Source: Planctomycetota bacterium
Lineage (GTDB): Bacteria > Planctomycetota > UBA8108 > SXIK01
DNA length: 64,000 nt
NCBI GenBank assembly: GCA_965223845.1
Contig: CBDCXR010000004.1
Location: forward strand, 4,992,001 to 5,056,000
Direction of reading: 5' to 3'
Of the stretch, positions 3,001-52,417 are shown piece by piece. Numbering within the stretch: position 1 is the first letter of the stretch; the number at the start of each line of letters is the position of its first letter. A model generated the notes under the pieces. That model did no database searches, was not told the origin of the DNA, and saw nothing but the letters and a program-made list of their open reading frames with translations. The position numbers were made by a program, and so were the translations under genes.

Positions 3001-4399
3001 GAACTATCTCGCATTCGATAACGCGGGGGAACGATTCGCGACGTCGACGTGGCAGGGGGAAGACGTTTACGTGTGGGATGCGAACGAAGGCCGCCGCCTC
3101 AAGACCCTCCCCGCGGGTTCAACGCGAGTTGCGTGGGGCGCAGACGATCGCTGGCTCGTCATCGGCGTCGACCGCACCCTTCTCGTCTACGACACGCAAT
3201 CCTGGAGCGTCGTTCATCGCGTGGAGCGCCAGCGGCGTAGCGGTCCGGTCGCGTTCAGCGCTGACGGCGAGACGCTCGTCACGTTCGGAGGCGAGAATCG
3301 CCTGGAGCTGCACTCCGTCGGGGACTGGAGCTCGTTCGCCCGGCTCGAGGCGCCCGGCGGGATCCTCGACCTCACGGACGTTCGTTTCTCCCTCGACGGG
3401 CGATTCATCGCCGCCGCTTCTCCGTCGAACGCGATCGATATCTGGGATCTCACACGCCTTCGTGAGGAGCTCGCGCCGCTCGGGGTCGATTGGGACGGCG
3501 AGCGTCTTCCATCGACGACCGACCGAGCGCCGCCGCGATCGATCGCAGTCGAATACGTCGAAGCCCCTCGCCGCTCGATCGCTTCGCCGAGCGAGCGGCA
3601 CGCCCGCCTCGCGGATCTCTTCACTCGCATCCTCTCGCTACGAAACGATGTCGACGTCGTGGGAAAGCGCGCGGCAATCGCCTGGCAGCTCGGCCGCAAC
3701 GACTCGGCGCTGCTCGACTGGACGCGAGCGATCGACCGCCGTCCGAGCGACCTCACACTCGTTCTCCAGCTCGGAAAGTTCTTTCTCGACGTGGGTCACG
3801 CGCGCGAGGCCGCGGAGTACATGGATCAGGCGCTCGCGCTCGCCGAATCCGGACGCGGCACGGCGGATCTATCGCGCGAAGCCGAGAGGGGAGTGTTCGG
3901 CACGATTCACTGGCTGAGGGCTCGCGCCCGACGCTTGCTCGAGGATCGAGCGGGCGCGCGACGCGACTGCGAACGCGTCATCGAATTCGTTCCGGGCCAT
4001 CCCGAAGCGATCTTACTCGCCGCGTGGCTCTGGGCGCTCGAGCCGGCGGCGGGCGACTCGGAGCGCCTCGCGCGCACTCGGGCCAAGACGGGAACGCGGT
4101 TTCATGGACGGATGCACCAAGCGGCTCTCGCGACATCGGCAGTCGCCGTGCTCACCGGCAGCCCCGATGATGCGATCGGCTGGCTCGAACGGGTAACGGA
4201 TCGAGGTGAGGACGGCGCGGCGAAGTCCTACATCCTCGCGATCGCGTACGCGAAAAAAGGCGACCTCGCCGCGGCGGACGAACACGGCCGAGAGGCGAGA
4301 CGCCGAGCGGAGAAGCTCAAATCGCTCGCAGAATGGAAACAGAGCGAGCTCGCGCTCCTCCGCGGGATCGCGGAGCGCGAGCTCGCAGCGGCGCGGTGA
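47..4399 (+). CDS. Membrane Ser/Thr protein kinase with WD40 beta-propeller repeats and C-terminal TPRs
   Basis: Hanks motifs [45 protein letters not shown] segment ([17 protein letters not shown]). Many WD40-like repeats (AFSPDG...W, GHSAEV...LWD) and a helical TPR-like tail. The N-terminal '[19 protein letters not shown]' helix is typical of planctomycete kinases. Confidence 0.93.
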
Positions 4400-9153: not shown

Positions 9154-11235
9154 TCACCGCCCGAGCATCTCCGAAAAGCGATGGATCGCGGGCTCGAGCT
9201 CCTGTCGATCGGTGAGAACGGCGGCGAACAGCTCGCCGCGATGCGCGATGCGCCGTGCCATCGTCTCGAGGCTGAAGTCTTCGCGCCGGAGCTTCGAGTC
9301 GAGCTCGTCCCACTCGAGCGGCGCGGACACCGTCGCCGCCTCGACCGGCCGGACGACGTACGGCGGCACGACCGTCTGCCCGCGGCGGTTCTGCAGGTAG
9401 TCGATGTACACCTTGCCCCCGCGACGGGCCTTCACTCGCTCGACCGTACAGAGATCGCTTCGCTCGGAGGCTATGTGCCGCGCGACGCCTTCGGCGAACA
9501 TCCGCGTCTGCTCGTAGGAATAGCGCGCGACGAGCGGAACGAACACATGGACTCCGCTCGCGCCCGACGTCTTCACGTACGGCCTGAGTCCGATCCCACG
9601 CAGCACTCGACCGACGCGCTGAGCGACTCGGACGACGAGCGAAAACTCGGCACCGTTGGGATCGAGGTCGAACACGATCCAGTCCGGCACATCGAGGCTG
9701 CCGACGCTCGACAGCCACGGGTGAAGATCGATGCTGCCGAGATTGACGAGGTACGCGAGCGTCTCGCGATCGTCGCACACCGGATATCGCACCGGCTCGC
9801 CGTCCGCGTCGATGACGGTCTCCGTACGAACCCACACGGGCGCCGTGTCGGGGAGATTGTGGTGATAGAACGACTTTCCGTCGATCCCGTCCGGAAAGCG
9901 CCGGAGGTGACAAGGGCGACCCCGAAGGTGCGGGAGGAGCGCGTCGGCGACATCGTGGTAATAGTCGAGAAGATCTCCCTTCGTGCATCCGCGCGAAGGA
10001 AAATAGATTTTCTGTCGATGCGTGAATCGAACGCGACCGAACTCGCTCTTGCGAGTACCCGAAGCAGCGCGGAGAACGTCGAGGGCGCTTCCCGAGATCG
10101 GCTCTCGACCGGGAAGCTCGATGCGTCGCCACGTCGGCGATGTACCGTGCACGTACGGACTCGCCGCGCATTTCGCGATCACGCCGCCGAGCCCGGCGGT
10201 TGCGACCGATCGAGCGAAGGATCCACCCTCGGCGCGCACCGACTCGACGAACGAGATCGCCCGCGAGCGGGGTACGATCGATCGGAGGATCTGCCGTCGT
10301 TCATAGAGGGTCAGCTTCTCGACGTTCCACCGGTCGTACTGAACGATGTCGAAAGCGCAGAGGGTGAGTTCATCTCCCGTGTCCTCGGCGAGCCTCCGTT
10401 CGAGTCGAGCACGCGAGGGGCGGGAGTCGTCGTCGAGGCACACGAGGACTCCGTCGAGAGCCGCAGTCCGTGCGCGCAGCTTTCGCAGCGAAGCGAGAAC
10501 GGAGTCGGTCTTTCCTTCGACCGCGCGGCCGCTCGAGTCGCGAAGTCGCACGTCCTCGCCGCGCTTGAGCGCAGAAACTCGCATGCCGGCGAACTCAATC
10601 TCGAAGAGCCACTCGTGATCCGTGAACGGGGGCGTCGTCGCTTCGGGCTCCATGGGAACCAGCCGCCGCGGGAACTCGCGCGCAGGAGCGCGCCCGAAGT
10701 CGACCCCGAATGGATACGGCGGATCATCGGCGTCGCGCTCGTAGACATCGCGCCCCTTGATGAGAAGCCACTCCTTGGGATTCCTCGAGGTACGAACGAG
10801 ATGCCACTCGCCGCGGAGACGCTCACCGTCGAACTCGACGACGAGCTTGCCCGCGTCGGCGCCCTCCTCCACCGTGCCTCCTTCGAGCACGCGGTAGACG
10901 CCCTTGTCCCAAATCGTCATCGTTCCGGCGCCGTACTCGCCCTCGGGAATCACGCCGTCGAAGTCGACGTATTCGATGGGATGGTCTTCCGTGCGAACCG
11001 CGAGCCGCTTGTCTTCGCGTGAGTAGCTGAATCCGCGCGGGACGGCCCACGACTTCAGCACCCCACCGGATTCGAGGCGGAGATCGTAGTGGACGTGCGT
11101 CGCTTCGTGGCGATGGACGACGAAGACCTGCGCCTCCGAAGTGGCGCGCGTCGCTCGAGAGCCGGTCCGAGCACTCGGCTCGGGCGTCTTTCGAAAATCC
11201 CGCTTTCGCCGATATTCACTGAGGTCGTCGGACAT
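9154..11235 (-). CDS. ligD: LigD-like NHEJ protein: 3'-phosphoesterase + degenerate ligase (NTase) domain + AEP polymerase
   Basis: PE domain: LSEYRRKRDF..TPEP, HEATHVHYDLRLE, SWAVP, EDHPIEY. POL domain: FDLDP, KTSG..GVH, YIDYLQN..GQT..PY..R. The middle domain aligns to ligase motifs but reads EIEFAGMR instead of ExKxDGxR. Start at MSDDLSEY (11235). Confidence 0.92.
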   Translation of the reverse strand: MSDDLSEYRRKRDFRKTPEPSARTGSRATRATSEAQVFVVHRHEATHVHYDLRLESGGVLKSWAVPRGFSYSREDKRLAVRTEDHPIEYVDFDGVIPEGEYGAGTMTIWDKGVYRVLEGGTVEEGADAGKLVVEFDGERLRGEWHLVRTSRNPKEWLLIKGRDVYERDADDPPYPFGVDFGRAPAREFPRRLVPMEPEATTPPFTDHEWLFEIEFAGMRVSALKRGEDVRLRDSSGRAVEGKTDSVLASLRKLRARTAALDGVLVCLDDDSRPSRARLERRLAEDTGDELTLCAFDIVQYDRWNVEKLTLYERRQILRSIVPRSRAISFVESVRAEGGSFARSVATAGLGGVIAKCAASPYVHGTSPTWRRIELPGREPISGSALDVLRAASGTRKSEFGRVRFTHRQKIYFPSRGCTKGDLLDYYHDVADALLPHLRGRPCHLRRFPDGIDGKSFYHHNLPDTAPVWVRTETVIDADGEPVRYPVCDDRETLAYLVNLGSIDLHPWLSSVGSLDVPDWIVFDLDPNGAEFSLVVRVAQRVGRVLRGIGLRPYVKTSGASGVHVFVPLVARYSYEQTRMFAEGVARHIASERSDLCTVERVKARRGGKVYIDYLQNRRGQTVVPPYVVRPVEAATVSAPLEWDELDSKLRREDFSLETMARRIAHRGELFAAVLTDRQELEPAIHRFSEMLGR

Positions 11236-11528
11236 CCGGTTCGCTCTCCCTCGAGTCACCGCGAACGATCGTACCGCGGAACCGGCCGGAACGAGCCCCC
11301 GCCGCTCCACGAGTTATCGGACGCAGTGCGGCCACTCTCGTTCACTTCACCGAGATTCACACAACGCGCGGGGGGTCACCGGCCGATATTCCCGTCCAGG
11401 AACCGAACCACGCGAAGCTAGCGGGCGCAAAATTGTTAGAGGCCCTCGCACCGAGCGGGTAGGTTCGAATCGGTCGGGCGCACGACGCGCGAAACCTCAG
11501 GACGCCAGCGAGAGAGAGGGTTTCCAAT

Positions 11529-12422
11529 ATGGCTCCGCGTTCGAGCTGGAAGGGATTCATCCGGCTCAGTCTCGTCTCGATCCCCGTAAAGGCGTACACC
11601 GCGAATGCGACGGGATCCGAGATTCGGCTGAATCAACTGCACCGCGACTGCAACAGCCCGATCAAGTACCGCAAGGTCTGCCCAGCGCACGGTGAGCTCG
11701 ACGCCGAGTCGATCGTCTCCGGCTACCAGTACTCGAAGGGCCAGTACGTCGTCATCGATCCGAAGGAGATCGAGCAGCTCCGCACGGAGAGCGACAAGGC
11801 GATTGCGATCGACGGCTTCGTCGAGCGCGGCGCGATCGACGCGCGTTACTTCGCGGGCAAGAATCACTACCTCGTTCCCGATGGGCCCGTCGGGCAGAAG
11901 GCGTACGTGCTCCTTCAGAGAGTGATGGACGAAAAGGGGCTCCACGCGATCGCTCAGGTGGTTCTCTCCGGCAAGGAACAACTCGTCGCACTCCGCACGG
12001 TTGGACGGCTCCTCGTGATGACCGGACTCTCGTACGAGAGTCAAGTGAAGCGGCCCGATCTCTTCGAGGACGAAGTCGTCGACGTCGACGTCTCTCGCGA
12101 CGAGCTCAAGCTGACCGAGAACCTCGTCGACGCGACCACGTTCGCCGAGCTCGATCTCGCGAAGTACAAGGACGTCTACGTCGAGAAGTTGACCCAGCTC
12201 ATCGAGGCGAAGGTCGAAGGGAAAGAGATCGTCGCCGCGCCGGACACTGAAGAGCCCAAGGTGATCGAGCTCATGGAGGCCCTGAAGCGAAGCGTCGCGG
12301 ACGCGGCGGCGCAGACGCCGGCCGGAGGCACACCGGCGAAGAAGTCCAAGGCGAAGAAGAAGATGGCGCCGAGCGCCGGCTCAAAGCGGCAAGCCGCGAA
12401 GAAGAAGCGAAAGACGAGCTGA
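11529..12422 (+). CDS. ku: Ku protein (non-homologous end joining)
   Basis: R.SWKGFIRLSLVSIPVK, QLHRDC...CPAHG bridge, GYQYSKGQYVVI, IAIDGFV, VIELMEALKRS, Lys-rich C-terminal tail. Confidence 0.96.
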   Translation: MAPRSSWKGFIRLSLVSIPVKAYTANATGSEIRLNQLHRDCNSPIKYRKVCPAHGELDAESIVSGYQYSKGQYVVIDPKEIEQLRTESDKAIAIDGFVERGAIDARYFAGKNHYLVPDGPVGQKAYVLLQRVMDEKGLHAIAQVVLSGKEQLVALRTVGRLLVMTGLSYESQVKRPDLFEDEVVDVDVSRDELKLTENLVDATTFAELDLAKYKDVYVEKLTQLIEAKVEGKEIVAAPDTEEPKVIELMEALKRSVADAAAQTPAGGTPAKKSKAKKKMAPSAGSKRQAAKKKRKTS

Positions 12423-12512
12423 TGCGGCGCTGCGATTCCGAGGTCGGACGCGAGCCACTCGCGCGCGGCCACGCCGTTTGACGTCCGAACGAAGATCGAT
12501 CGACTGCCGCCG

Positions 12513-13430
12513 ATGTCCGCGCGGGAATCTCTCCCATCGTTCGTTCCTCCGATGCTCGCCTCTTCCGGCGAGCCCTTCGACGGTGAAGATTGGTTCTTCG
12601 AGGTCAAGTGGGATGGAATGCGCGCGCTCGCCTTCGTCGAAACCGACTCCGTTCGGATCGTGAACCGGCAGCGGCGCGACGCCACGCTGCGCTATCCGGA
12701 GCTCGCTCCGTTCTGCGAGCTGCCGCCGGGATCCGTCATCGACGGCGAAATCGTCGTCTTGCGGAGCGGGAAACCCGATTTCGAGCGTCTCGTCTCGCGC
12801 GAGCAGGCTCGCTCCGCCCGGCGCGCGCGAATCGCCGCCCAAACGAATCCGGCGACGTTCATCGCGTTCGATCTCCTCTACGAGAAGTTCGTTCCGATCC
12901 AGTCGCGAGCACTCCGCGAACGACGCGAGCGGCTTCGTACCCTGCTCGAGAGCGCGAAGGTCGATCCCGTAGTGCTCTCCGATGGAGTGGAGGCAGAAGG
13001 CCGAGCGTTCTTCGACGGAGTCTGCGAACGCGGCCTCGAAGGTGTCGTCGCGAAGCGACTCGAGAGCCGTTACACGCCGGGAGTCCGCAGTCCGCACTGG
13101 ATCAAGATCAAGCGCCGCCACCAGCTCTGTTGTGCGGTGATCGGCTACCTGGCCGAAGGCGACGATGTGAGGAGTCTCGTCATCGCAGCGGACACCGACG
13201 GCGGACTCGCGTACGTCGGACGCGTCGGCAGCGGGATCGACGAAGCCACGCGCGCTCGGCTCCTCGAGGAGCTCGCGCGCCGCCCGGCCGAGCAGCCGAT
13301 CGTCGAGTGCCCGATCGCGGCGCGCTGGGTCGCTCCGGGCGTCTACTGTACCGTCGATTACCTCGAGATCAGCAAGAGCGGAAAGCTGCGGGGGCCGGTG
13401 TTTCGCTCACTCGTCATCGACGGCGATTGA
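12513..13430 (+). CDS. Stand-alone ATP-dependent DNA ligase (LigD ligase-domain / LigC-like, NTase+OB)
   Basis: Intact motifs: PMLA, EVKWDGMRA (I), DGEIVV (III), FDLL (IIIa), EGVVAKR (IV), WIKIK (V); OB fold VGRVGSG...LRGPVF. Confidence 0.93.
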   Translation: MSARESLPSFVPPMLASSGEPFDGEDWFFEVKWDGMRALAFVETDSVRIVNRQRRDATLRYPELAPFCELPPGSVIDGEIVVLRSGKPDFERLVSREQARSARRARIAAQTNPATFIAFDLLYEKFVPIQSRALRERRERLRTLLESAKVDPVVLSDGVEAEGRAFFDGVCERGLEGVVAKRLESRYTPGVRSPHWIKIKRRHQLCCAVIGYLAEGDDVRSLVIAADTDGGLAYVGRVGSGIDEATRARLLEELARRPAEQPIVECPIAARWVAPGVYCTVDYLEISKSGKLRGPVFRSLVIDGD

Positions 13431-29991: not shown

Positions 29992-32900
29992 TCATCGCGG
30001 AGAAAGAACGCCCGACGTTTCCCGGGTGACGCCGCGAAGGACGAAGTCCACCTCCTGCGATTCCGCTCCCTCGCAGTCGAACTCGAGCGCGAGGTCATCT
30101 CGTCCCGACGGAAAAACACGATAGCGTCCCGGGAGAAACCCCGAGCGACGCCAGCTTCCGTCACGCTGGATCGCCGCATAGGCGGCCGGCGGCGGTGAAC
30201 CATCGCTCGCGAGCGGGTGGATCTCGACGGTCCCGCCGCGAACGGGTTGCTCCTTGTCGTCGTAGACCACGCCGGAAAACCTCGTCCCGGCATCGATCGT
30301 CACCCGGCCGACGTCGACTCCCCGAAGCGTCACATCGATCTTCTTCGAGTCATAGGTCAGGTACTCGTCGTGTCGAACTCGAAAGAACACCGTTCCCGCC
30401 GGCACTCCCACGAGTCGAAAGGCTCCGGACTCGTCGGACGTTGCACTGCCTTGTCGCGAGTGCTGCCGGCGAATCAGCCGGCGCGTTCGATCGATCCCCG
30501 TCGTCATCATCATCGTCGTCGGTGCGTGCTCCTCCGCTCCCACCTCATCCTCCGAGATCAGATAGATGCTCGCTCCGGCCACGGGACGTCCATCCGTTCC
30601 AACGAGCGTTCCCGCGACAAACGCACCGCGCTCGAGATCGATCTCGAAGTGTGACTCCACGTCGTCACCGAGGTTCACTTCGAGCGTGGAGATCGCGTAC
30701 CCGGGCGCGTAGACACGCAGCCGGTATTCCTTCGGATCCCGGTCGAGGAGCGCGAAGTGCCCTTCCGGATCCGAGAATCGGGTTCCGCTCCGGTACGCGC
30801 GGCGACTGTGGACCCGGTCGAGATGGACGGAGAACTCTCGAATCGGTTCTCCCGTTTCGGCGTCGCGAACGACCCCGGAGAGCGACGCCTTTCTGGTCAC
30901 CCGGAGCTCCACCCGTTCCCCCGCGCGCGCTTTCACCGCCGGCGACGAGCTTCCGCGAGCGATCGCGTTTAGCTTGTATTCGGCATCGCCGGCGCCGTGA
31001 AACGTGAAGGTTCCGTCCGAGTCCGAGATCACCCACGCCTCGTCGCCGTAACGGATGCGCGCTTCGACCCGCGCGAGACCGATCGGCGCTCCTCGAGCGT
31101 CGACGACGCGCCCGGTGATGGCGCCACTCTCGACGACGATCGAAACATCGTCGACATCGCCCGCGACCTCGAGCTCTCGAGCTTGCTCGAGAATCCGCTC
31201 GCCCGTGACAACGACCCGATACCGCCCCTCCCTCCGCCCGCGAAACGAAAACTCGCCCGCGTCATCGGTCCGCGTGTGCTGGGCTGAACCCGTACGCTCA
31301 CCGAAGTATCGCTGGAGACCCACCCGCGCCCCGACGAGCGGCGCTCCCGTGCTGTCGGTCACGCTTCCCGCAATGACGAATCCCCGAGCGAGCTCGATGC
31401 TGCCGAGGTCGAGCACTCCCGAAGTCAAGGTGACCGAGCTCGACTGAGGTCTCAGGTAGCCGTCCTTCCGCGCGCGAAACGAGTACTCCGCACCGACTGC
31501 GCCGAGGAGCTCGAACTTCCCCTCCGGGTCGGTCTTCGCTCGCACATCCCCCGGATTGCCTCGAGTCGGCGAAATCGACACGTTCGCATCCGCGATCGCC
31601 TCGCCATCGCTATCGACGATGCGACCGCGTACGAGTCCGGACTCGGCGAGCACGGCATCGACACGAAACGGATCGCGACTCGCCTCGTCGATCTCGAAGG
31701 TATCGCTCTCGTAGCGAGGGAATCCGTCCGCCTCGACCGAAACGAGTGCCGGTCCGCCGGCGAGACGCAGGATCTCCCATCGCCCGTCGGAGTCGGTCAC
31801 GGCCACGAGGTTCGATCGCATTCTCTTGTCCCAAAAGCGCTCGCGCTCGTAGTGGACTTTGACGCGAGCCCCGTCAACGGGTTCGCCGCCTGCGGTCGTC
31901 ACCCTCCCGGCGACACCGCCCCCCTGAGCCAGCCGAATGATGAGCCCGCGGCTCCCGGCTGCGATCGAGTTGAGCTCCGCTGGAGCCCACGCCGGGTGAC
32001 GCGCGACGATCCGGCGATTTCCCGACGGCAGCCGCGTCAGCTCGAATCGGCCGTCCGCGCCGGTTCGCTCCGCGAGGCGATCCCAAGCCCAACCGTCGTT
32101 CGTCGAGCGGAGTGCGAGCATGGAGGGAAGCCCGTTGCCGCTCAGCGCGGTCGTGCTCCGCACGTCCGCCCCTTCGACCGGCTGGCCGTACGGGTCGACG
32201 ACGACCCCGGAGAGACCGAGGCCGCGCTGAAGCGCGAGCTCGACTTCGGTCACCTCGCCTTCGGCGATGACGAGATCGCGAACCTCGTTGGGAATCCGTT
32301 CCGGTCCGATCGCGCGGACGACGTATGCGCCGACCGGAACGGCCGCGAACTCGAACGCGCCGTCGGCCGCGGATTCGGTCTCGCTCTCGACTTCCGCGTC
32401 GAATCTCATGAAGTCGGAGTCCGTGACCCGAGCCGCGGTCACGCGTATCGCGGGAAGCGGGTTTCCGGCGAGGTCGACGACCACTCCGCGGAGAGTCCCC
32501 GTCTCGGTCGGCTCGGGCGGCTCGAGCGTCACCGCCTCGCTCACCTCAGCCGGTCCCGTCGCACGGTCGATCGTCTCGACCGGAGCGGTCGAGACGACGG
32601 GGTCGTCGATCGGCGGCGAGATCCGCGTCGGATCCGGCCCATCCGTCCGATCGTAGGCCCACCACGCCACCACCCCAAGTAGAAGCACCGCCATCCCGGC
32701 TGCGGTCGTGTTTTTCGCGGTCAACGCTACACCTCCGAGCATCCATCCGGCCATCGCCGTCGACTCGGGCGCGGATGCGAACGTGCTCGCGGTCTCGCCA
32801 GCACTCCTCGACGTCGCGCCTTCGCTCCCGCCCATCGCCCAGCCCGAACCCGAGCCACCCGGAACGAGTACGGACGCCCACATCGAGCGCCCCCCGCACT

Positions 32901-33405
32901 CGCGGTCGAGCCGATTGCGAAGGATCGCGATCCCTCGCCGTAAACGCGTATGGACGGTATCGATGGGAACGCCTTCCGCCTCGGCGATCGCGCGCGTGCT
33001 CATCGCTTCGAAGTAACGAAGGACGATGACGTCGCGGTACTTCGGGGGAAGCGCGAGGACGAACTCGACGAGCTGGAGCTGTAGCTCGGCACGCTCGAGC
33101 GCGAGCCCGCACTCAGCCGAGACCCGTTCCGCGCGGGCGGCGCGCTCTTCGCGACGACGACGCCGGTGCTCTTCGCGTCTGCGCTCGCGGGCCCGATTGC
33201 GGAGAACGCCGCGGAGCCAGCCGAGAGAGCGTTCGGCGCCGTCATGCGATCGACTCGCCGCGACGAGCCACGTCTCCTGGACGATGTCGTCCGCCGATGT
33301 TTCGTCACCGACGAGCGCCCGAGCGAGGCGCCGGAGACGCGGCGCATGGGAGAGGAGAAGCTCGCTGGCGGAGGGTCGATCGGCTGGCGTCAGAGAGGTG
33401 TCCAT
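29992..33405 (-). CDS. ECF sigma-70 factor fused via a TM helix to multiple carboxypeptidase-regulatory-like domains
   Basis: Region 2: LRRLARALVGD..ADDIVQETW...GWLRGVLRN. Region 4: LPPKYRDVIVLRYFEAMS..IA...GVP..TV.TRLRRG. TM AVLLLGVVAWWAY, then many G.V.D..G.P..GA.V repeats. Confidence 0.9.
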   Translation of the reverse strand: MDTSLTPADRPSASELLLSHAPRLRRLARALVGDETSADDIVQETWLVAASRSHDGAERSLGWLRGVLRNRARERRREEHRRRRREERAARAERVSAECGLALERAELQLQLVEFVLALPPKYRDVIVLRYFEAMSTRAIAEAEGVPIDTVHTRLRRGIAILRNRLDRECGGRSMWASVLVPGGSGSGWAMGGSEGATSRSAGETASTFASAPESTAMAGWMLGGVALTAKNTTAAGMAVLLLGVVAWWAYDRTDGPDPTRISPPIDDPVVSTAPVETIDRATGPAEVSEAVTLEPPEPTETGTLRGVVVDLAGNPLPAIRVTAARVTDSDFMRFDAEVESETESAADGAFEFAAVPVGAYVVRAIGPERIPNEVRDLVIAEGEVTEVELALQRGLGLSGVVVDPYGQPVEGADVRSTTALSGNGLPSMLALRSTNDGWAWDRLAERTGADGRFELTRLPSGNRRIVARHPAWAPAELNSIAAGSRGLIIRLAQGGGVAGRVTTAGGEPVDGARVKVHYERERFWDKRMRSNLVAVTDSDGRWEILRLAGGPALVSVEADGFPRYESDTFEIDEASRDPFRVDAVLAESGLVRGRIVDSDGEAIADANVSISPTRGNPGDVRAKTDPEGKFELLGAVGAEYSFRARKDGYLRPQSSSVTLTSGVLDLGSIELARGFVIAGSVTDSTGAPLVGARVGLQRYFGERTGSAQHTRTDDAGEFSFRGRREGRYRVVVTGERILEQARELEVAGDVDDVSIVVESGAITGRVVDARGAPIGLARVEARIRYGDEAWVISDSDGTFTFHGAGDAEYKLNAIARGSSSPAVKARAGERVELRVTRKASLSGVVRDAETGEPIREFSVHLDRVHSRRAYRSGTRFSDPEGHFALLDRDPKEYRLRVYAPGYAISTLEVNLGDDVESHFEIDLERGAFVAGTLVGTDGRPVAGASIYLISEDEVGAEEHAPTTMMMTTGIDRTRRLIRRQHSRQGSATSDESGAFRLVGVPAGTVFFRVRHDEYLTYDSKKIDVTLRGVDVGRVTIDAGTRFSGVVYDDKEQPVRGGTVEIHPLASDGSPPPAAYAAIQRDGSWRRSGFLPGRYRVFPSGRDDLALEFDCEGAESQEVDFVLRGVTRETSGVLSPR

Positions 33406-33674
33406 ACATCGGATGATGGCCACCGCCGGCGAGTTCCGTTCACGGAATTCGGCGCGACGCCCCGCGAATCTCTTCCGCGAGGGCCGTGAGTTCCGAGAAC
33501 CGCCCCCGAGTTCCGCCAACTCGCGCCGATTCGTCGGCTTCGCTCGGGCGATGGTAGCCTCCTCAGGCAACTCTCGCGCGCTCGCGCGACGATCGAGTCG
33601 CCCCCCGCAGAACGGCCTCTCTTCCCTCCCTCCTCTGGCCGTTCGCCATCGCTACTCACAGGCGGTTTCGATCG

Positions 33675-44883: not shown

Positions 44884-45666
44884 ATGCAGTACCGCGAGAT
44901 CGACTGGTACGACGTTCCCCGCTACTACGACCTCATCTTCTCGGAGGGAACGGAAGAGGAGGCCGACTTCCTGGAGGCGATGCACCGTCTTTACGGCCGA
45001 AGCTCGGGCAAGCGGATGCTCGAGCCCGGCTGCGGCAGCGGGCGGCTCGTCGCGGAGATGGCGCGGCGAGGCTATACGGTGACGGGACTCGACCTGAGTG
45101 AGCCGATGCTCGACTTCGCCCGTACGCGGCTCGAGCGGGACAAGCTCTCGGCCGTTCTCCGGCGCGGCGACATGGCGAAGTTTCGCATCCGTGGGAAGTG
45201 CGATATCGCTCACTGCCTCGTCAGCACCTTCAAGTACCTCCTCGACGAAGAGAGCGCGCGCTCACACCTCGAATCCGTTCGCGACGCCCTCCGCGAAGGC
45301 GGCATCTACATTCTCGGCTTCCACTTGAGCGACTACGACAGCCGCTCGCGCGTTCGGGAACGCTGGACGGCGAACCAGGATGGACTCGACGTGCGCTGCA
45401 ACATCCAGGCTTGGCCGCCCGATCGGAAGACGCGCATCGAGCGCGTGCGCTCGCGCCTCGTCGTGGAGGAGCGCGGAAAAACGATGCGCTCGGAGACTCA
45501 CTGGGACTTTCGCACCTACGACGCGCGCCAAGTACGGGAGCTCCTCGCGTCGGTTTCCGGCCTCAAGCACATCGCGACCTACGACATGACCTACGAGCTC
45601 GGACGCAAGCGACGCTTCGACGACGAACAGCTCGACAACGTCCTCGTTCTCCGCCGGACGTCGTGA
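44884..45666 (+). CDS. Class I SAM-dependent methyltransferase
   Basis: MLEPGCGSGR, VTGLDLSEPML, GDM, LREGGIYIL. Confidence 0.92.
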   Translation: MQYREIDWYDVPRYYDLIFSEGTEEEADFLEAMHRLYGRSSGKRMLEPGCGSGRLVAEMARRGYTVTGLDLSEPMLDFARTRLERDKLSAVLRRGDMAKFRIRGKCDIAHCLVSTFKYLLDEESARSHLESVRDALREGGIYILGFHLSDYDSRSRVRERWTANQDGLDVRCNIQAWPPDRKTRIERVRSRLVVEERGKTMRSETHWDFRTYDARQVRELLASVSGLKHIATYDMTYELGRKRRFDDEQLDNVLVLRRTS

Positions 45667-45675
45667 ATCCGCGGC

Positions 45676-48600
45676 TCAACGCGAAAGCGATGGTACGTGT
45701 TGCGAACGTACCGCCCCGGTCTCCGTCTCGCCGTACTCCCCGAGCGACCAAACGAGATCGCGGTAGTTCTGAACATCGAGCACGGTCAGCGTCTGGATGG
45801 CTCGCACCGTGACGATCTTGCGCGTCCAGTTGTCGTAGTCGCGCGCGACGCGGCGCATCTCACCGAGGACGACGTCGGTGTGCTCCGCTCCGCACCGTGC
45901 TTCTTCGAGAGTCATCGCCACCGCGCGTTCGATCGCTCGTCCCGCTCCCAAGAAACGCCGGAGAAACTTCCGTCGCATCTTTCCGGGGAGGTCCTTCGCG
46001 AGGACGCCGTGGTCCATCGCTTCACGAAAGAGCCGGCGACGGCGGCGGTTCCGAGGCAGGAACCAGAGGAAACCACCGAACACGAAGATCTCGAGTCGGG
46101 CTCCCCACGACTCGCGCTCCGTCGATGCGCGAGCGAAGAATTCGCGCGTCCGCTCCGGAGCGGTAATTCGGGAGCGCAGGCGACCGTGGTCGTTCACGTA
46201 GGCGGTCGCGAGCGCGCGGAGCACTTCGCCACCGTGCTCGGCGAACCCGCTCGACTCTCCGAGGGCGGAGAAGAGACCCGCCGCGCCGTTCTCGAGCCAG
46301 CCGTGACGGGCAAGGTAGAACCGGAACCGGCGGAGATCCTGCTCGACCTCGGCCCGAAACGCCTCGAGCGGACTGCGCTCGGTCTCGAAAGCGCCGATGA
46401 AGTTGAGGTCGTCGCGGTACGAGTGCGTCGAATCGGCGTCGCTCGCCGCGCGTGCGCGTTCGACCCCGGGAATTCGAAGGTCGAGATAGGCGATGTCGAT
46501 CGCCATGCGAAGCTCGAGCAGCTCCATGAAAATCGGCTTCCGCATTCGATTGATCTTGCGGACCGCGACATCGAAATTCGCGACGCGCGACAGCTGACTC
46601 CGCAGGAGACTCGTCCCGCCGATGACCTCACGGACGAGCTGGGCGACCTGTCGAACCGCACCGACGACGAGCTTTCCCGCCGCGAGGACCGCGACGAGTG
46701 GCAAAAAGATGAATCTCGCCCCGCCGAAATAGCGGTGGTAGATCCGGTACGGGTTGAAGACGCGCTGGTGGCGCGGCAGTTGGTGGTAGGGTCGGGTGCC
46801 GAAGACGTCGCGAATCACTCCGCGTCGGTCGCGCCGGAGGGCTTCGAACACGTCATCGCCGAAGCGTCGACGAACCTCGGCGTCGCGCACGGGGTCGACG
46901 GTCAGGAAGTGAAGCGCGTGGAACTCGTCCGTCAGGAGGGTCTGGGCTCGAGTTCCTTCGCGCCGCGCGGTGCGCCGCTCATACGCGCCCTCGTCGCCCA
47001 GCTCGCGCGCGCGTAGAAAACTCTGAAGGCGATCGTTTTCCTCCGGCGTTGCGAGCGCGCGCTTTTCGAGCGGTAGGCAGGTCCGGTTGTACTCCGTGAC
47101 GAGCTTCGCCGTTTCGATCGAGAGACTCTCCGTGATGAAGCGGAACCAGAAGTAGGGCCCGAGGGTGAGGAGGCTGTTCTTTTCGAGATTGAGCTTCTCG
47201 AGCCGCCTCCGCGCCCGTCGCGAGAGAGACAGCGTGTGGGTGCGGATGTCGTCGAGAACAAGATTTCCGAGGAGCTGCACGGACGTTCCGCCGTCGCTCC
47301 GATGGAGAATCGGGCCGTCGAGAAACGACGCGTAGTGAAGCTGGATCGCGTCACGATCCCCCGCGAACGGCAGCCACGCGTCCGTCTCGAGAGTTCCCGT
47401 CTCGTCGGCGAGGAATTCGACCCACGCGCTCCGCTTCGAGCTCGGCGGCGGCCGGACTTCGAACTCCGGCGCGATGACGGATTGGAAGAGGCGGTCGAGG
47501 TCTTCGCTCCGCCGCCGACGCTTCCACTCTTTCGTGAGCGTGTAAAAGTGCGCATCGGCGGTCCGGAGATGAACATCGAGGGCCTCCCCGGCGATTTTCT
47601 TCAGCCAAAGCCCGATGACGAACACGACGAGACAGATCGATCCGAGGACGAGAATCGGGACGCCGAGGATCTCGAAGAGTCGATTGGACACGCTCGAGAG
47701 CATGCCGCCGAAGCCCTCACTCGTCGCTCCGAAGAGGTGCGCGAGCCCGCGAAAGAGGAAGAAGAGACCGCCGAGAAGAAGAAGTCGAATCGCGGGCCGC
47801 TTCGACGCGAGGATCATCGCGCTCGCGATGCGATCGAGGATCTGAGGACCGGTGGTGATTCCGGAGACGTCTCCCCAGAATCGAAGTGCACCGAGAAAAT
47901 CCTCGAGGACACGGCCGATGGCGCGGATCGCGGTGGCGACGGCCTCCCCGGGATCTTCGAGGCGAGCGGCGGGCGCGATGCGCCGAACGAGAGGGGCTCG
48001 CCGAAAGACCGGAACGTCGAGGAACCGAAGCCAGCGCGCGACGCGCTGCGCACCTTCGCGTCCGAGATGCGTCATGGAACGCGTGACGTCGCAATCGAGG
48101 CAGCGGACGATGACTTCGTCGAGCCGAATCTCGTCCGCGCCGCCGAGCACGCTCCGGCGGTAGGGAACGCCGAGCTCAACGAGAACATCGGCCTCGAGCC
48201 CGAGGAGCTCGGCATGCCGGCGGAGGAGCTCGGCGCGCTCGGACCACTCGACGTCGCGATAGACCAGCCGGAACGCACGTCGATGCCTCTCGGCGAGCTG
48301 GCTCAACTGATTCTCGACGGCCGAATCGGGCGCGTCGTCGACTCCGCGAAGGTCGAAGAGCACGACGTCGCGATCGAGAACGCCGCGAAAACGTTCGACC
48401 GTACGGTCGGCGCCCCGCACGAAGAACGCCAGCACCCGAAGACTTCGAAAGAGCGCCGGAAGCCGGAGGAAGCGCTGGAACTGAAACAAGCGAACTACGA
48501 TGACGCTGCTCAGCGCCGGCATGAGAAGGCCGTAGGGAAGCGCCGGCAGACTTTCGAGGAAGAAATGACGGCGGAAGTACCAACCGCGCCAGCGCGCGTG

Positions 48601-49926
48601 ATGCCAGCGGACGAAGAAGTCGACTTGGAAACCGACGCAGAGGATCAAGTCCGCGAGATGGAGCCAGAGGATCAGCGGATGACGCTCTTCTGAGCCACCG
48701 CCCGCGCCGAGCCCACCGGGCGAGGAGTCGGCGCTGTTCGCGCCGCTGCCCGATGCCCCTCCGGCTCCGGTCGAGCCCAGCCACCACTCGAGCGCGGCGA
48801 TGCCGAGAAACGCGAAGATCATCCAGAGCACGACCATCTCGGCCCAGCGGACGCCGCGCGCTCCGAACGTCGCCCGGAGACGCCGATAGACCGTCTCCTC
48901 GCGTTCGGCGTTTCGCGTCCGTTTCCGGATCCGTTCGAGCCGGCGGAGCTTCCTTTTGAGGTCGCGCGCTTCGACGCGCGGCAGCGCTCCCTTTCTCAGA
49001 AGCGCCTTCTGGTCGTCCTGAACGACTTTGAAAAAGAAATCGATGCGATCTCGCAACGCGCGGAGGGACGGAATCTTGCGGCACTCATCCGCACCGGCGA
49101 CATCGGTCAGAATCGCGCTCGCGTAGTCGATGAGATCGCTCGCTGCGCGGTCGCAAAACTGCGCTTTTTCGGTCGGCGTCGATTCTCCGAACGCTTTCGC
49201 ACAGCGGTCGACAAATTCGGCGCGCTGCGTCTTGAGCGCGCGAACGCCCTTCTCACCCAATTCGAGCTTCGCTTCGAGACTCGATGGCTCGGAGGCAGCC
49301 GACGGTGTCGCGGAAGAGTAGCCGCGCGCCGCCGCCTCGATCTCCACCTGGTACGACTCCCCCGCCGCGAACCAAAGATGAAGCGCCTCTTCGAACGACG
49401 ACCGGCCAGCCGGAACGTCGCTCTCATCGAGAAACCGCACGAGCTTCTTGTGAAGGAGCCGCCGGCGGACGCCCTCGGCGGTTTCGTCGACGACGCGGGC
49501 GCCGAGTTCGAGCGCGGGGTCCCAGCGTGCGACCCCTTTCGCCTCCGATTCGACCCAGTCGAGCTCACTCTCGACGAACGACACGGGATCGGCCGAAAGC
49601 TCGCCCGAGGCACTCTCGCCGAGCCAACGAAGCCAGCGCACCTCTGCGCCGAGATCGAGAGCGGCGTCGAGTGCCGCCGCGGGATCGCTCTCGGCTCCGT
49701 CCTCGAAAGAACGGACGCGCTCGGCGACTTCAGCGGCGCGCTCGGAGATCCTCTCCTGCACCTCGTCGGCACGCAGCTCGCCGTAGGCGGCGATTTCCCC
49801 GCGCCGCACTTCGCGGAGATCCGCGACGAGCTCGGAGGGGATGGATCGCCCATCGCGGACGTGGGCGTGCGCTGCGGTGGAGATCCTCCAAGCGGAGCGG
49901 GGGGAGTCGGAGTCGAGAGGCGCCAT
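45676..49926 (-). CDS. Large membrane protein containing an Ion_trans-like S1-S4 voltage-sensor module, no recognisable pore
   Basis: S1 EMVVLWMIFAFLGIAALE; S2 DLILCVGFQVDFFVR; S3 YFRRHFFLESLPALPY; S4 RLFQFQRFLRLPALFRSLRV; further hydrophobic segments downstream. Confidence 0.8.
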   Translation of the reverse strand: MAPLDSDSPRSAWRISTAAHAHVRDGRSIPSELVADLREVRRGEIAAYGELRADEVQERISERAAEVAERVRSFEDGAESDPAAALDAALDLGAEVRWLRWLGESASGELSADPVSFVESELDWVESEAKGVARWDPALELGARVVDETAEGVRRRLLHKKLVRFLDESDVPAGRSSFEEALHLWFAAGESYQVEIEAAARGYSSATPSAASEPSSLEAKLELGEKGVRALKTQRAEFVDRCAKAFGESTPTEKAQFCDRAASDLIDYASAILTDVAGADECRKIPSLRALRDRIDFFFKVVQDDQKALLRKGALPRVEARDLKRKLRRLERIRKRTRNAEREETVYRRLRATFGARGVRWAEMVVLWMIFAFLGIAALEWWLGSTGAGGASGSGANSADSSPGGLGAGGGSEERHPLILWLHLADLILCVGFQVDFFVRWHHARWRGWYFRRHFFLESLPALPYGLLMPALSSVIVVRLFQFQRFLRLPALFRSLRVLAFFVRGADRTVERFRGVLDRDVVLFDLRGVDDAPDSAVENQLSQLAERHRRAFRLVYRDVEWSERAELLRRHAELLGLEADVLVELGVPYRRSVLGGADEIRLDEVIVRCLDCDVTRSMTHLGREGAQRVARWLRFLDVPVFRRAPLVRRIAPAARLEDPGEAVATAIRAIGRVLEDFLGALRFWGDVSGITTGPQILDRIASAMILASKRPAIRLLLLGGLFFLFRGLAHLFGATSEGFGGMLSSVSNRLFEILGVPILVLGSICLVVFVIGLWLKKIAGEALDVHLRTADAHFYTLTKEWKRRRRSEDLDRLFQSVIAPEFEVRPPPSSKRSAWVEFLADETGTLETDAWLPFAGDRDAIQLHYASFLDGPILHRSDGGTSVQLLGNLVLDDIRTHTLSLSRRARRRLEKLNLEKNSLLTLGPYFWFRFITESLSIETAKLVTEYNRTCLPLEKRALATPEENDRLQSFLRARELGDEGAYERRTARREGTRAQTLLTDEFHALHFLTVDPVRDAEVRRRFGDDVFEALRRDRRGVIRDVFGTRPYHQLPRHQRVFNPYRIYHRYFGGARFIFLPLVAVLAAGKLVVGAVRQVAQLVREVIGGTSLLRSQLSRVANFDVAVRKINRMRKPIFMELLELRMAIDIAYLDLRIPGVERARAASDADSTHSYRDDLNFIGAFETERSPLEAFRAEVEQDLRRFRFYLARHGWLENGAAGLFSALGESSGFAEHGGEVLRALATAYVNDHGRLRSRITAPERTREFFARASTERESWGARLEIFVFGGFLWFLPRNRRRRRLFREAMDHGVLAKDLPGKMRRKFLRRFLGAGRAIERAVAMTLEEARCGAEHTDVVLGEMRRVARDYDNWTRKIVTVRAIQTLTVLDVQNYRDLVWSLGEYGETETGAVRSQHVPSLSR

Positions 49927-50067
49927 CGCGGGACGGATCAAGTACGAAAAAACACGGGCGACCGGCCGCTCGAGGCGCGAGCTCGCGGACGATCTCGTAG
50001 CGAGCGAGGACGGAGACTACAATGCTCCGGGAAGTCACCGGCGAAGTCACGAGAAGAAGCGAGCAAG

Positions 50068-51634: not shown

Positions 51635-52417
51635 GTGGTTCAGACAACCGTCCCGAGTGGACGTCTAGAAGACGCCCGCATCGCGTTCTTTTGCGATTTC
51701 GAGAACATCGCGCTCGGAGTGCGCGACGCGAAGTACAAGAGCTTCGACATCGGCAAGGTTCTCGAACGCATCGTCGAGTACGGCAAGATCGTCGTTCGCC
51801 GCGCCTACGCCGACTGGGACGCGTACAGTCGCTACAAGCGAGCGTTTCACGAAGCGGGAATCGAGCTCATCGAGATTCCACGAAAGGCGTACAGCGGGAA
51901 GAACTCGGCGGATATCCGGATGGTGGTCGACGCGATGGATCTATCGTTTTCGAAAGATCACATCAACTGCTTCGCACTCGTGAGCGGAGACAGCGACTTC
52001 TCTCCACTCGTTTCGAAGCTCCGCGAGAACGACAAGTACATCGTCGGGGTCGGCGTCAAGAATTCGACGAGCGATCTCCTCGTCGAGAGCTGCGACGAGT
52101 TCATCTATTACGATGACATCGTCCGGGTGCAGCAGGGCTCATCCTCGACGAAGCGCCTCCGCGGGGCGACGGACAAAGAGAAAGAAGCGTTCTCCCGCGT
52201 CCTCAACGCGATCGAGGCTCTCGTGCGTCAGGATCGCGAGATCATCTGGAGCTCGATGGTCAAGCAAGCGATCAAACGCAAGTACCCGCAGTTCAACGAG
52301 CAGTACTACGGCTACCGTTCCTTCTCCCACCTGCTTCAGGACGCGCAGAAGAAGAAGCTCCTCACGCTCTCGCGCGACGAACGGAGCGGGGGTTACGAGG
52401 TGCGGCTCCCGGAGTAG
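51635..52417 (+). CDS. NYN domain (LabA/DUF88) protein with C-terminal OST-HTH/LOTUS domain
   Basis: FCDFENI, RAYADW, GKNSADI.MVVDAM, SGDSDF.PLV, CDEFIYYD; FNE.YYGYRSFS.LL; GAGGAG RBS + GTG. Confidence 0.92.
   Translation: MVQTTVPSGRLEDARIAFFCDFENIALGVRDAKYKSFDIGKVLERIVEYGKIVVRRAYADWDAYSRYKRAFHEAGIELIEIPRKAYSGKNSADIRMVVDAMDLSFSKDHINCFALVSGDSDFSPLVSKLRENDKYIVGVGVKNSTSDLLVESCDEFIYYDDIVRVQQGSSSTKRLRGATDKEKEAFSRVLNAIEALVRQDREIIWSSMVKQAIKRKYPQFNEQYYGYRSFSHLLQDAQKKKLLTLSRDERSGGYEVRLPE

Follow-up and report, generated by a model that had tools for sequence, protein, structure and literature searches.

To our knowledge, only a few proteins use a voltage sensor to govern anything other than a pore, and each of them is eukaryotic: the voltage-sensing phosphatases, Hv1, TMEM266 and SLC9C1. 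In KvAP and the other channels of Pfam family Ion_trans (PF00520), the voltage-sensor domain (VSD), comprising helices S1-S4, is followed by an S4-S5 linker and an S5-P-loop-S6 pore with a selectivity filter. In Ci-VSP/TPTE the VSD is joined to a cytoplasmic effector in place of a pore, in that case a PTEN-like phosphatase with a C2 domain, and Hv1, a four-transmembrane (TM) protein of ~270 amino acids (aa) with a coiled coil, likewise has no classical pore domain. The S4 helix of SLC9C1, as described in the literature, lacks an S4-S5 linker and extends ~60 Å into the cytoplasm, where it is clamped by, and moves, helical domains (PMC10620092). Here we analyze a gene on the minus strand (45676..49941) of a 64,000-nucleotide stretch of Planctomycetota DNA (GenBank contig CBDCXR010000004.1, positions 4,992,001 to 5,056,000; hereafter the window) whose product carries an S1-S4 sensor without a conventional pore. 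We think it somewhat probable that this product is no conventional ion channel but senses the membrane potential and drives a new cytoplasmic effector.

The gene is one open reading frame of 1,421 aa when started from the TTG at 49941. An in-frame ATG at 49926 would give an alternative product of 1,416 aa, and it is this position that an earlier model reading of the letters alone (hereafter the sequence-only reading) had taken as the end of the gene. P0002, a protein 100% identical to our query in a word-index protein search, has a recorded length of 1,416 aa. The parts of the gene are as follows.

45676..49941, minus strand: whole gene, monocistronic, 1,421 aa (TTG at 49941) or 1,416 aa (ATG at 49926)
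48922..49941, minus strand: residues 1-340, N-terminal cytoplasmic region, rich in Ala, Leu, Glu and Arg, the least conserved part of the family
48391..48921, minus strand: residues 341-517, voltage-sensor domain (Pfam Ion_trans, KvAP profile match, predicted structure and its VIA-align matches, conservation)
47872..48390, minus strand: residues 518-690, cytoplasmic helical insert between S4 and TM5, at the position of an S4-S5 linker
47545..47871, minus strand: residues 691-799, pre-H5 motif and TM5-TM6 hairpin (predicted helices, conservation)
45679..47544, minus strand: residues 800-1421, C-terminal all-helical domain (predicted structure), putatively cytoplasmic
46621..46719, minus strand: residues 1075-1107, hydrophobic helix H7 within the C-terminal domain

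Taken singly, the protein gives marginal evidence of a VSD. Pfam Ion_trans matched it with an E value of 0.0014, its 18.3 bits falling short of the cut-off of 25, and aligned residues 422-506 with positions 32-120 of the 241-position profile. An NCBIfam scan of the protein returned no family, and phmmer against the Protein Data Bank (PDB) returned nothing significant (NavRh, 4DXW, E 0.99). The identity of the VSD is settled by the family. The word-index search found 55 proteins at E ≤ 0.001, mostly 1,200-1,480 aa long and either unnamed or called 'hypothetical protein'; the named sources are Planctomycetota, one protein is annotated 'ion transporter', and a precomputed PF00520 match exists for 14 of the 55. 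A 54-member family profile matched the isolated KvAP voltage sensor (1ORS) with an E value of 1.9e-7, placing profile positions 352-474 on chain residues 17-132 (S1-S4). Full-length KvAP, Kv4, Kv2 and other channels came next in this search, and all of these alignments end at S4. When 30 relatives were scanned singly, Ion_trans was found at E ≤ 0.01 in 28, above the curated cut-off in 18, and in none of these 28 does the match leave positions 2-130 of the 241-position profile. The single canonical Ion_trans channel of the same genome (outside the window, at G000:C4:4578774-4579412, locus L132) serves as an internal control and covers profile positions 2-235 with 122.7 bits; the sensor protein scored 20.2 bits in the genome-wide Ion_trans search, over positions 33-120. 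The organism has a normal six-TM channel plus the pore-less sensor protein. To judge from these sequence matches, the VSD of the window protein is a genuine, conserved, canonical S1-S4 voltage sensor, its resemblance going beyond chance. The 'voltage-sensor-like S1-S4 domain' of the sequence-only reading is thus confirmed, both by the family profile (KvAP, E 1.9e-7) and by the predicted fold described below.

S1-S4 occupies residues 361-517 (nucleotides 48391-48861), close to the ~48410-48850 first proposed, and is preceded by a pre-S1 helix, S0 (341-359). S1 (361-393) has acids at its inner (E368) and outer (E385) ends and leads into a Gly/Ser-rich S1-S2 loop. S2 (422-448) contains D431, C435, F438, D441, F442 and R445; its acid-x6-Phe-x2-acid spacing is that of the charge-transfer center motif of Kv channels. 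S3 (453-476) carries E463-S-L-P466-A-L-P469-Y, and S4 (478-517) has R484, Q487, R490, R493, A496, R499 and R502 in a three-residue register, after which it is prolonged as a cytoplasmic helix to about residue 517 that carries R509 and D512. All of the S2, S3 and S4 motifs listed from the letters alone (D431...F438..D441-F442..R445, ESLPALPY and the S4 Arg register) are present, where that reading had placed them. With regard to membership in the voltage-gated ion channel superfamily, the protein has the S1-S4 sensor with periodic S4 arginines and acidic counter-charges.

In order to examine the fold, residues 340-1421 were modeled with AlphaFold2 (AF2) on a 54-sequence alignment, which gave an all-helical model with a predicted local distance difference test (pLDDT) of 84.9 and a predicted template modeling score (pTM) of 0.79. 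We compared this model with 48,161 PDB representatives using VIA-align, and the results below refer to the 50 rows listed. The sensor of Ci-VSP was the top VSD match (4G7V; model residues 7-177, protein residues 346-516; Z 9.2, root-mean-square deviation (rmsd) 4.6 Å, 129/136 residues), and the KvAP sensor 1ORS aligned with model residues 19-184 (Z 8.5, rmsd 4.6 Å, 127/132 residues, 18% identity); VSD Z values alone fall in a range where helical matches may be generic, and they take their weight from agreement with the sequence evidence. VSD-bearing proteins account for 13 of the 50 rows and include Kv2.1, KvAP, CNGC15b, NaV1.7, NaVEh, CatSper, SKOR, Slo, CaV2.2, CaV1.2 and others. The sequence-only reading had proposed modeling of the four helices as a check, and they do align to the Ci-VSP and KvAP sensors. 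A Foldseek search of the PDB with the whole 1,082-residue model gave zero matches at E ≤ 0.001. Basic residues flank S1, the S2-S3 loop and the post-S4 helix, which indicates the standard sensor orientation; S1-S4 sits in the membrane the usual way round, with the N-terminus inside.

Model residues 138-154, at the S3-S4 turn, have pLDDT <50, and the S3-S4 loop is almost missing in the window protein and its nearest relatives. Residues 394-419 (48685-48762, minus strand), the Gly/Ser-rich S1-S2 loop, also have pLDDT <50 and are an insertion absent from most of the 54 aligned relatives.

To determine which positions of the sensor are retained, we used a family alignment of 176 sequences, each at least 1,100 aa long, to which the conservation counts below refer.

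S2 outer acid D431: 176/176
S2 Phe 438: F in 129, L in 47 of 176
S2 inner acid 441: D/E in 175/176
S2 basic residue 445: R/K in 161/176
S3 acid 463: D/E in 162/176
S1 inner acid E368: E/D in 169/176
S1 outer acid E385: E/D in 160/176
R502: 176/176
R499: 149/176
R509: 165/176
D512: 174/176

The S4 arginines and their counter-charges are therefore conserved in homologues. Across the 28 residues ending at R502, members have a median of 7 R/K (range 2-9), and P0028, P0029 and P0030 are among those with Arg at eight or more consecutive third positions.

One could suppose that S1-S4 is vestigial, a structural membrane anchor unresponsive to voltage as in TRP-type channels, with the function of the protein wholly cytoplasmic. 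The window orthologue has only five register arginines and a nearly deleted S3-S4 loop, and AF2 confidence is low in its S3-S4 turn, all of which would fit such an anchor. We consider this improbable, however, as strong purifying selection has maintained the whole charge-transfer set in the 176 sequences and S4 charge is high in most members, reaching 9 R/K per 28 residues.

We find it still less probable that the protein works like Hv1, with the sensor's own gating pore conducting protons or ions and the remainder of the protein regulating it. Hv1 selectivity relies on an aspartate in the middle of S1. In our family S1 positions 369-384 are hydrophobic in the 176 sequences, and the only acids are at the helix ends, E368 and E385. 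Furthermore, the 6-9 R/K in the S4 of most relatives should occlude a gating pore, and at least 900 conserved extra residues would be left unexplained. The window protein does share with Hv1 a VSD without a classical pore domain, but it is five times larger and its S4 is far more charged; a small four-TM VSD protein with a coiled coil is not what was found (1,421 aa, six TM helices, two large soluble domains). In favor of conduction, two S4 register positions, Q487 and A496, are not basic in the window orthologue, and a 2024 review states that such S4 substitutions can open omega currents in channels (PMC13095418). That review also reports Hv channels as not found in bacteria or archaea, which stands against an Hv1-like role here (PMC13095418). 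Of the 'prokaryotic membrane-potential sensor or proton conductor' put forward by the sequence-only reading, the real, conserved VSD without a conventional pore has held up, whereas the proton conductor is unsupported given the lack of a mid-S1 acid and the Arg-dense S4.

The only family-conserved cysteines are C435 (48637-48639, minus strand; 167/176) and C770 (47632-47634, minus strand; 161/176), both mid-membrane, in S2 and TM6 respectively. They may reflect contact between S2 and TM6, or else a site for metal binding or redox chemistry. A co-evolution run on 294 columns of the 176 sequences yielded top pairs that lie mostly beside loop indels.

After S4, the chain enters soluble sequence, as had been noted from the letters: residues 518-690 form a helical insert of ~170 aa that carries a conserved motif at R647..P650 (LRxxxxPxxRxLPxxRR). 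The insert is followed by a very conserved pre-H5 motif, D691-x-x-G694-x-x-T-G-P-Q-I-L-D703-R704, and then by two long helices, H5 (698-740) and H6 (744-797; AF2 model helices 359-401 and 405-458), joined by a loop of three residues. Only their distal parts reach membrane-grade hydrophobicity (TM5, 716-740; TM6, 755-780), and this is the downstream TM pair suspected by the sequence-only reading. P716, R719 and L720 are conserved at the inner end of TM5, and G767, C770, G777 and W779 in TM6.

We find no P-helix or selectivity filter between TM5 and TM6, nor room for one, in either the AF2 model or the 176-sequence alignment, and no TVGYG-like filter anywhere in the protein. Loop positions 739-744 are gaps in >70% of the 176 sequences, position 745 is gapped in 43% and position 746 in 36%. 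Polar residues make up a fraction of 0.16 of the TM5 core and 0.14 of the TM6 core, and in VIA-align nothing but generic helical hairpins and coiled coils resembles the hairpin (Z 7.5-9.5). Because the loop is three residues long, its columns are gapped, the TM cores are hydrophobic and only generic hairpins match, a conventional S5-P-S6 pore is excluded. The S5-re-entrant P-loop-S6 pore of the voltage-gated channel superfamily is thus missing, and the earlier statement of no S5-P-S6 or TVGYG filter was borne out, since the downstream pair is a plain hairpin in the AF2 model and Ion_trans matches stop at or before position 130 of 241.

Among the 30 relatives scanned with Pfam, the sole extra domain above cut-off was DUF5372 in P0144 (E 9.9e-7), at its residues 748-794, between its S4 and TM5. 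The other extra match was a weak DUF327 in P0082, and neither is informative.

The hairpin could nevertheless belong to a voltage-gated channel with an unconventional pore, in which the TM5-TM6 hairpins of several subunits together surround a central path that has no P-loop, the sensor gates through the insert, and the C-terminal domain acts as a cytoplasmic vestibule or gating ring. CorA and MscL are hairpin-lined channels. The six-TM layout, with TM5 and TM6 at the S5 and S6 positions, agrees with such a pore, as do the long helices that project stalk-like into the cytoplasm and the conservation of the hairpin plus pre-helix, unsurpassed elsewhere in the family (0.52), G767, C770, G777, W779, P716 and R719 being near-invariant. 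Against it, a P-helix and a filter are missing (the loop comprises three residues here, and most of the 176 members vary in it or lack it), C770 is the one conserved polar residue in the cores of TM5 and TM6, the small-residue stripe of G767, C770 and G777 would be typical of helix packing, and Pfam and PDB profile matches never reach a pore half. A four-copy complex prediction of residues 694-800 scored 0.00 against a mark of 0.42, with the fold of the partner itself uncertain, and weighs on neither side. On balance we regard an unconventional pore as unlikely, yet as an alternative to be taken seriously.

Residues 800-1421 were also modeled alone (53-sequence alignment; pLDDT 88.0, pTM 0.88) and fold as one compact, all-helical domain. 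The near-invariant residues of this domain are mainly Arg, Lys, Asp, Asn, aromatics, Gly and Pro, and include R1039, R1044, N1063, R1128, K1129, R1132, R1145, D1149, D1178, R1380 and D1389; its net charge is +20. The cluster of invariant Arg and Lys hints at a putative anionic ligand, for example a lipid head group or a nucleotide-like molecule. A search of the ESM Atlas with residues 800-1421 gave no usable match.

Two features of the C-terminal domain were considered as further membrane elements and rejected. The first, helix H7, has a hydropathy of 1.45, and helical-bundle matches span C-terminal model residues 2..605, so that parts on either side of H7 pack together. We reject H7 as a seventh membrane pass because its flanks are basic on both sides and the domain folds as one compact unit; in the model it is probably a buried or membrane-facing helix, and the whole C-terminal domain would be cytoplasmic. 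The second concerns the first three helices, residues 800-883 (47293-47544, minus strand; model residues 1-84), which in 23 of the 50 VIA-align rows listed lie on S5-P-S6 pores of Kv, Kir, TRP, CNG, PKD and TPC channels (Z 4.8-6.2, rmsd ~5 Å). A cryptic pore here was rejected, as these are soluble charged helices (residues 803-828: 13/26 charged, hydropathy -1.38), the Z values lie under the level where a helical match tells of more than a shared arrangement, and HRDC domains match equally well. We treat this pore-domain likeness as geometric coincidence.

The N-terminal residues 1-340 have a mean top-residue frequency of 0.22 and zero columns conserved at ≥90%. In a search of the PDB with the family profile they gave matches of low-complexity type only, to designed helical repeat proteins.

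Relative to the Ion_trans channels, then, the window protein has a homologous S1-S4 with the same S2 acid-x6-Phe-xx-acid, S3 acid and S4 Arg at every third residue, but in place of the S4-S5 linker, S5-P-loop-S6 and filter it has the 170-aa insert, the loop-less TM hairpin and ~960 further residues in its N- and C-terminal domains. With Ci-VSP/TPTE it shares the concept of a VSD joined to a cytoplasmic effector; unlike these it is bacterial, has two extra TM helices and has an all-helical domain rather than a PTEN-like CX5R phosphatase and C2 (in the window protein Pfam showed neither a phosphatase nor a C2 domain at E ≤ 10, and the 30 relatives had none either). With SLC9C1, as described in PMC10620092, it shares an S4 that continues as a cytoplasmic helix without an S4-S5 linker, here to residue ~517 with R509 and D512. 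SLC9C1 is eukaryotic, however, with an NhaA-fold transporter, a cyclic-nucleotide-binding domain and another module order, and the window protein has neither module: no NhaA-fold exchanger or cyclic-nucleotide-binding Pfam match was found in it or in the 30 relatives, and it has only six predicted TM helices. Ci-VSP, in which the sensor drives an enzyme, and SLC9C1 are the nearest mechanistic precedents.

We infer where the soluble domains lie, how the sensor is coupled and any output it has, and propose the following mechanism for a membrane-potential sensor. The S4 arginines would face a charge-transfer center formed by D431, F438 and D441 of S2 and E463 of S3, and a change in membrane voltage would slide S4. 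This motion could be passed on by two routes, the first through the conserved post-S4 cytoplasmic helix (R509, D512) into the helical insert, and the second through the TM5-TM6 hairpin, which would lie beside S4 in the membrane and whose helices would serve as levers. The hairpin helices are predicted to reach ~20 residues into the cytoplasm, with H6 running straight into the ~620-residue all-helical domain. Coupling would thus be electromechanical, switching the conformation of the C-terminal domain and hence altering some binding or regulatory activity. At bacterial resting potentials, such a sensor would most plausibly report depolarization, that is, loss of proton-motive force.

Several observations weigh against a membrane-potential sensor with a cytoplasmic effector. 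The first group concerns the effector. In VIA-align the C-terminal model aligned to no PDB chain at Z ≥ 8 (Cas12a3 and CasX came closest, through helical portions, at Z 6.4), Foldseek with the same model gave zero matches at E ≤ 0.001 in the PDB or BFVD, Pfam (window protein and 30 relatives) and NCBIfam returned no family for this domain, and a PADLOC scan of 3 family members had no match. No C-terminal His or Ser is conserved at ≥80%, Walker A and HExxH motifs are absent, and the sole CX5R, at 955, is not conserved (C955 in 94/176, Arg in 42/176). The putative counterpart of the 'unknown effector' of the sequence-only reading is a large, conserved, helical C-terminal domain that could be modeled but has no detectable relative. 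The second group concerns the membrane part. The most conserved segment of the family is the TM5-TM6 hairpin, with a mean top-residue frequency of 0.52 versus 0.40 for the sensor and 0.22 for the N-terminus, and the six-TM layout mirrors that of channels and would also suit a role in conduction. Finally, the window orthologue is itself charge-poor, with five Arg in register and Q487 and A496 not basic, and in our own profile mapping it appears to lack the equivalents of KvAP R1 and R3.

Having weighed these points, we retain the view that the protein may be a bacterial means to read membrane voltage. On the stronger claim, that the class 'voltage sensor without a pore' gains in this protein its first prokaryotic member, a phylum-wide planctomycetal membrane-potential receptor whose S4 sensor drives an unprecedented ~620-residue helical effector domain, our confidence is evenly divided. 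What would be new, going by the modeled fold, is a pore-less voltage-sensor protein in bacteria with a new effector fold. Literature searches gave no account of the family or of any prokaryotic pore-less VSD protein in the text available to them; an 'unclassified' VSD cluster in Fig. S1 of a 2014 survey (PMC4001776) could contain relatives. Direct bacterial sensing of membrane potential is an open question, and a large, conserved single-gene family with a canonical sensor and a new output domain would offer an experimentally tractable handle on it. If the sensor reading is true, bacteria own a dedicated protein that turns changes in voltage or proton-motive force into an intracellular signal; if the protein is a channel instead, a pore without a P-loop would itself be a new architecture.

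To determine how widely the family occurs, we searched 1.84 billion representative proteins exhaustively with HMMER, taking residues 340-1421 as the query. This gave 449 clusters at E ≤ 0.001; 346 of them reach E ≤ 1e-10, and 264 reach E ≤ 1e-30. Of the 150 matches listed, most are 1,100-1,650 aa long and are colinear from the sensor through the C-terminus. Among 401 sampled Planctomycetota genomes, 72 contained a match (57/287 genera; 35/244 high-quality genomes). Nearly all of the matched genomes have one locus, the double entries examined (genomes G074, G176, G372, G083, G104 and G291) being adjacent pieces on one contig, and the window's own genome has a single copy. A pattern scan of 185,579 species genomes detected 145 relatives; it relied on one peptide pattern, so that divergent relatives elsewhere may have escaped. 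Among the 80 of these relatives listed, almost all are titled Planctomycetota, with a few metagenome-assembled genomes labeled otherwise. They span Planctomycetia, Pirellulales, Isosphaeraceae-type isolates (Aquisphaera, Singulisphaera), Phycisphaeraceae, Brocadiia/Brocadiaceae and Candidatus Uabimicrobium, and relatives occur in named isolates such as Kolteria novifilia, Aquisphaera insulae and Candidatus Uabimicrobium amorphum. As far as these homology searches reach, the family is large, colinear, effectively single-copy and nearly confined to Planctomycetota. The sequence-only reading had called for the distribution of homologues to be checked, and the outcome, a large Planctomycetota-centered family that keeps the S4 arginines, agrees with it.

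Ten short proteins were considered as stand-alone or fused C-terminal forms and rejected. Eight of them lie on contigs of 1-2.8 kb or have none listed, and are fragments. The other two, P0198 and P0060 (33,071-base contigs), look like pieces of split genes rather than stand-alone domains.

We also compared the neighborhood of the gene, ~8 kb on each side, with that of 20 other loci. There is no conserved neighbor: even the commonest adjacent protein is shared by only 4 of the 20 other loci, and the sensor protein is therefore self-contained, without a conserved partner gene. In the window the gene stands alone. Its downstream neighbor is a convergent S-adenosylmethionine (SAM)-methyltransferase gene (44884-45666, plus strand), followed by a GAF-domain gene, and upstream lie a divergent M20 peptidase gene and then an NYN-LOTUS gene. 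The latter (NYN-LOTUS, OST-HTH; 51635-52417, plus strand), two genes upstream, has a homologue within ~8 kb in 4 of the 20 loci, which is the highest recurrence seen and too low for linkage.

The stretch is present in 4 sequencing runs, all from one study and none recorded as RNA. Elsewhere in the window, positions 9154-13430 hold a non-homologous end joining (NHEJ) cluster composed of a LigD with phosphoesterase, ligase and primase-polymerase domains (minus strand), Ku (plus strand) and a separate ATP-dependent DNA ligase (plus strand). A 1,192-aa protein at 29992-33570 (minus strand) begins with regions 2 and 4 of an extracytoplasmic function (ECF) sigma factor and continues with at least eight CarboxypepD_reg-like repeats. 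At 47-4399 (plus strand), a 1,450-aa Ser/Thr protein kinase is fused to WD40 beta-propellers and TPR repeats.

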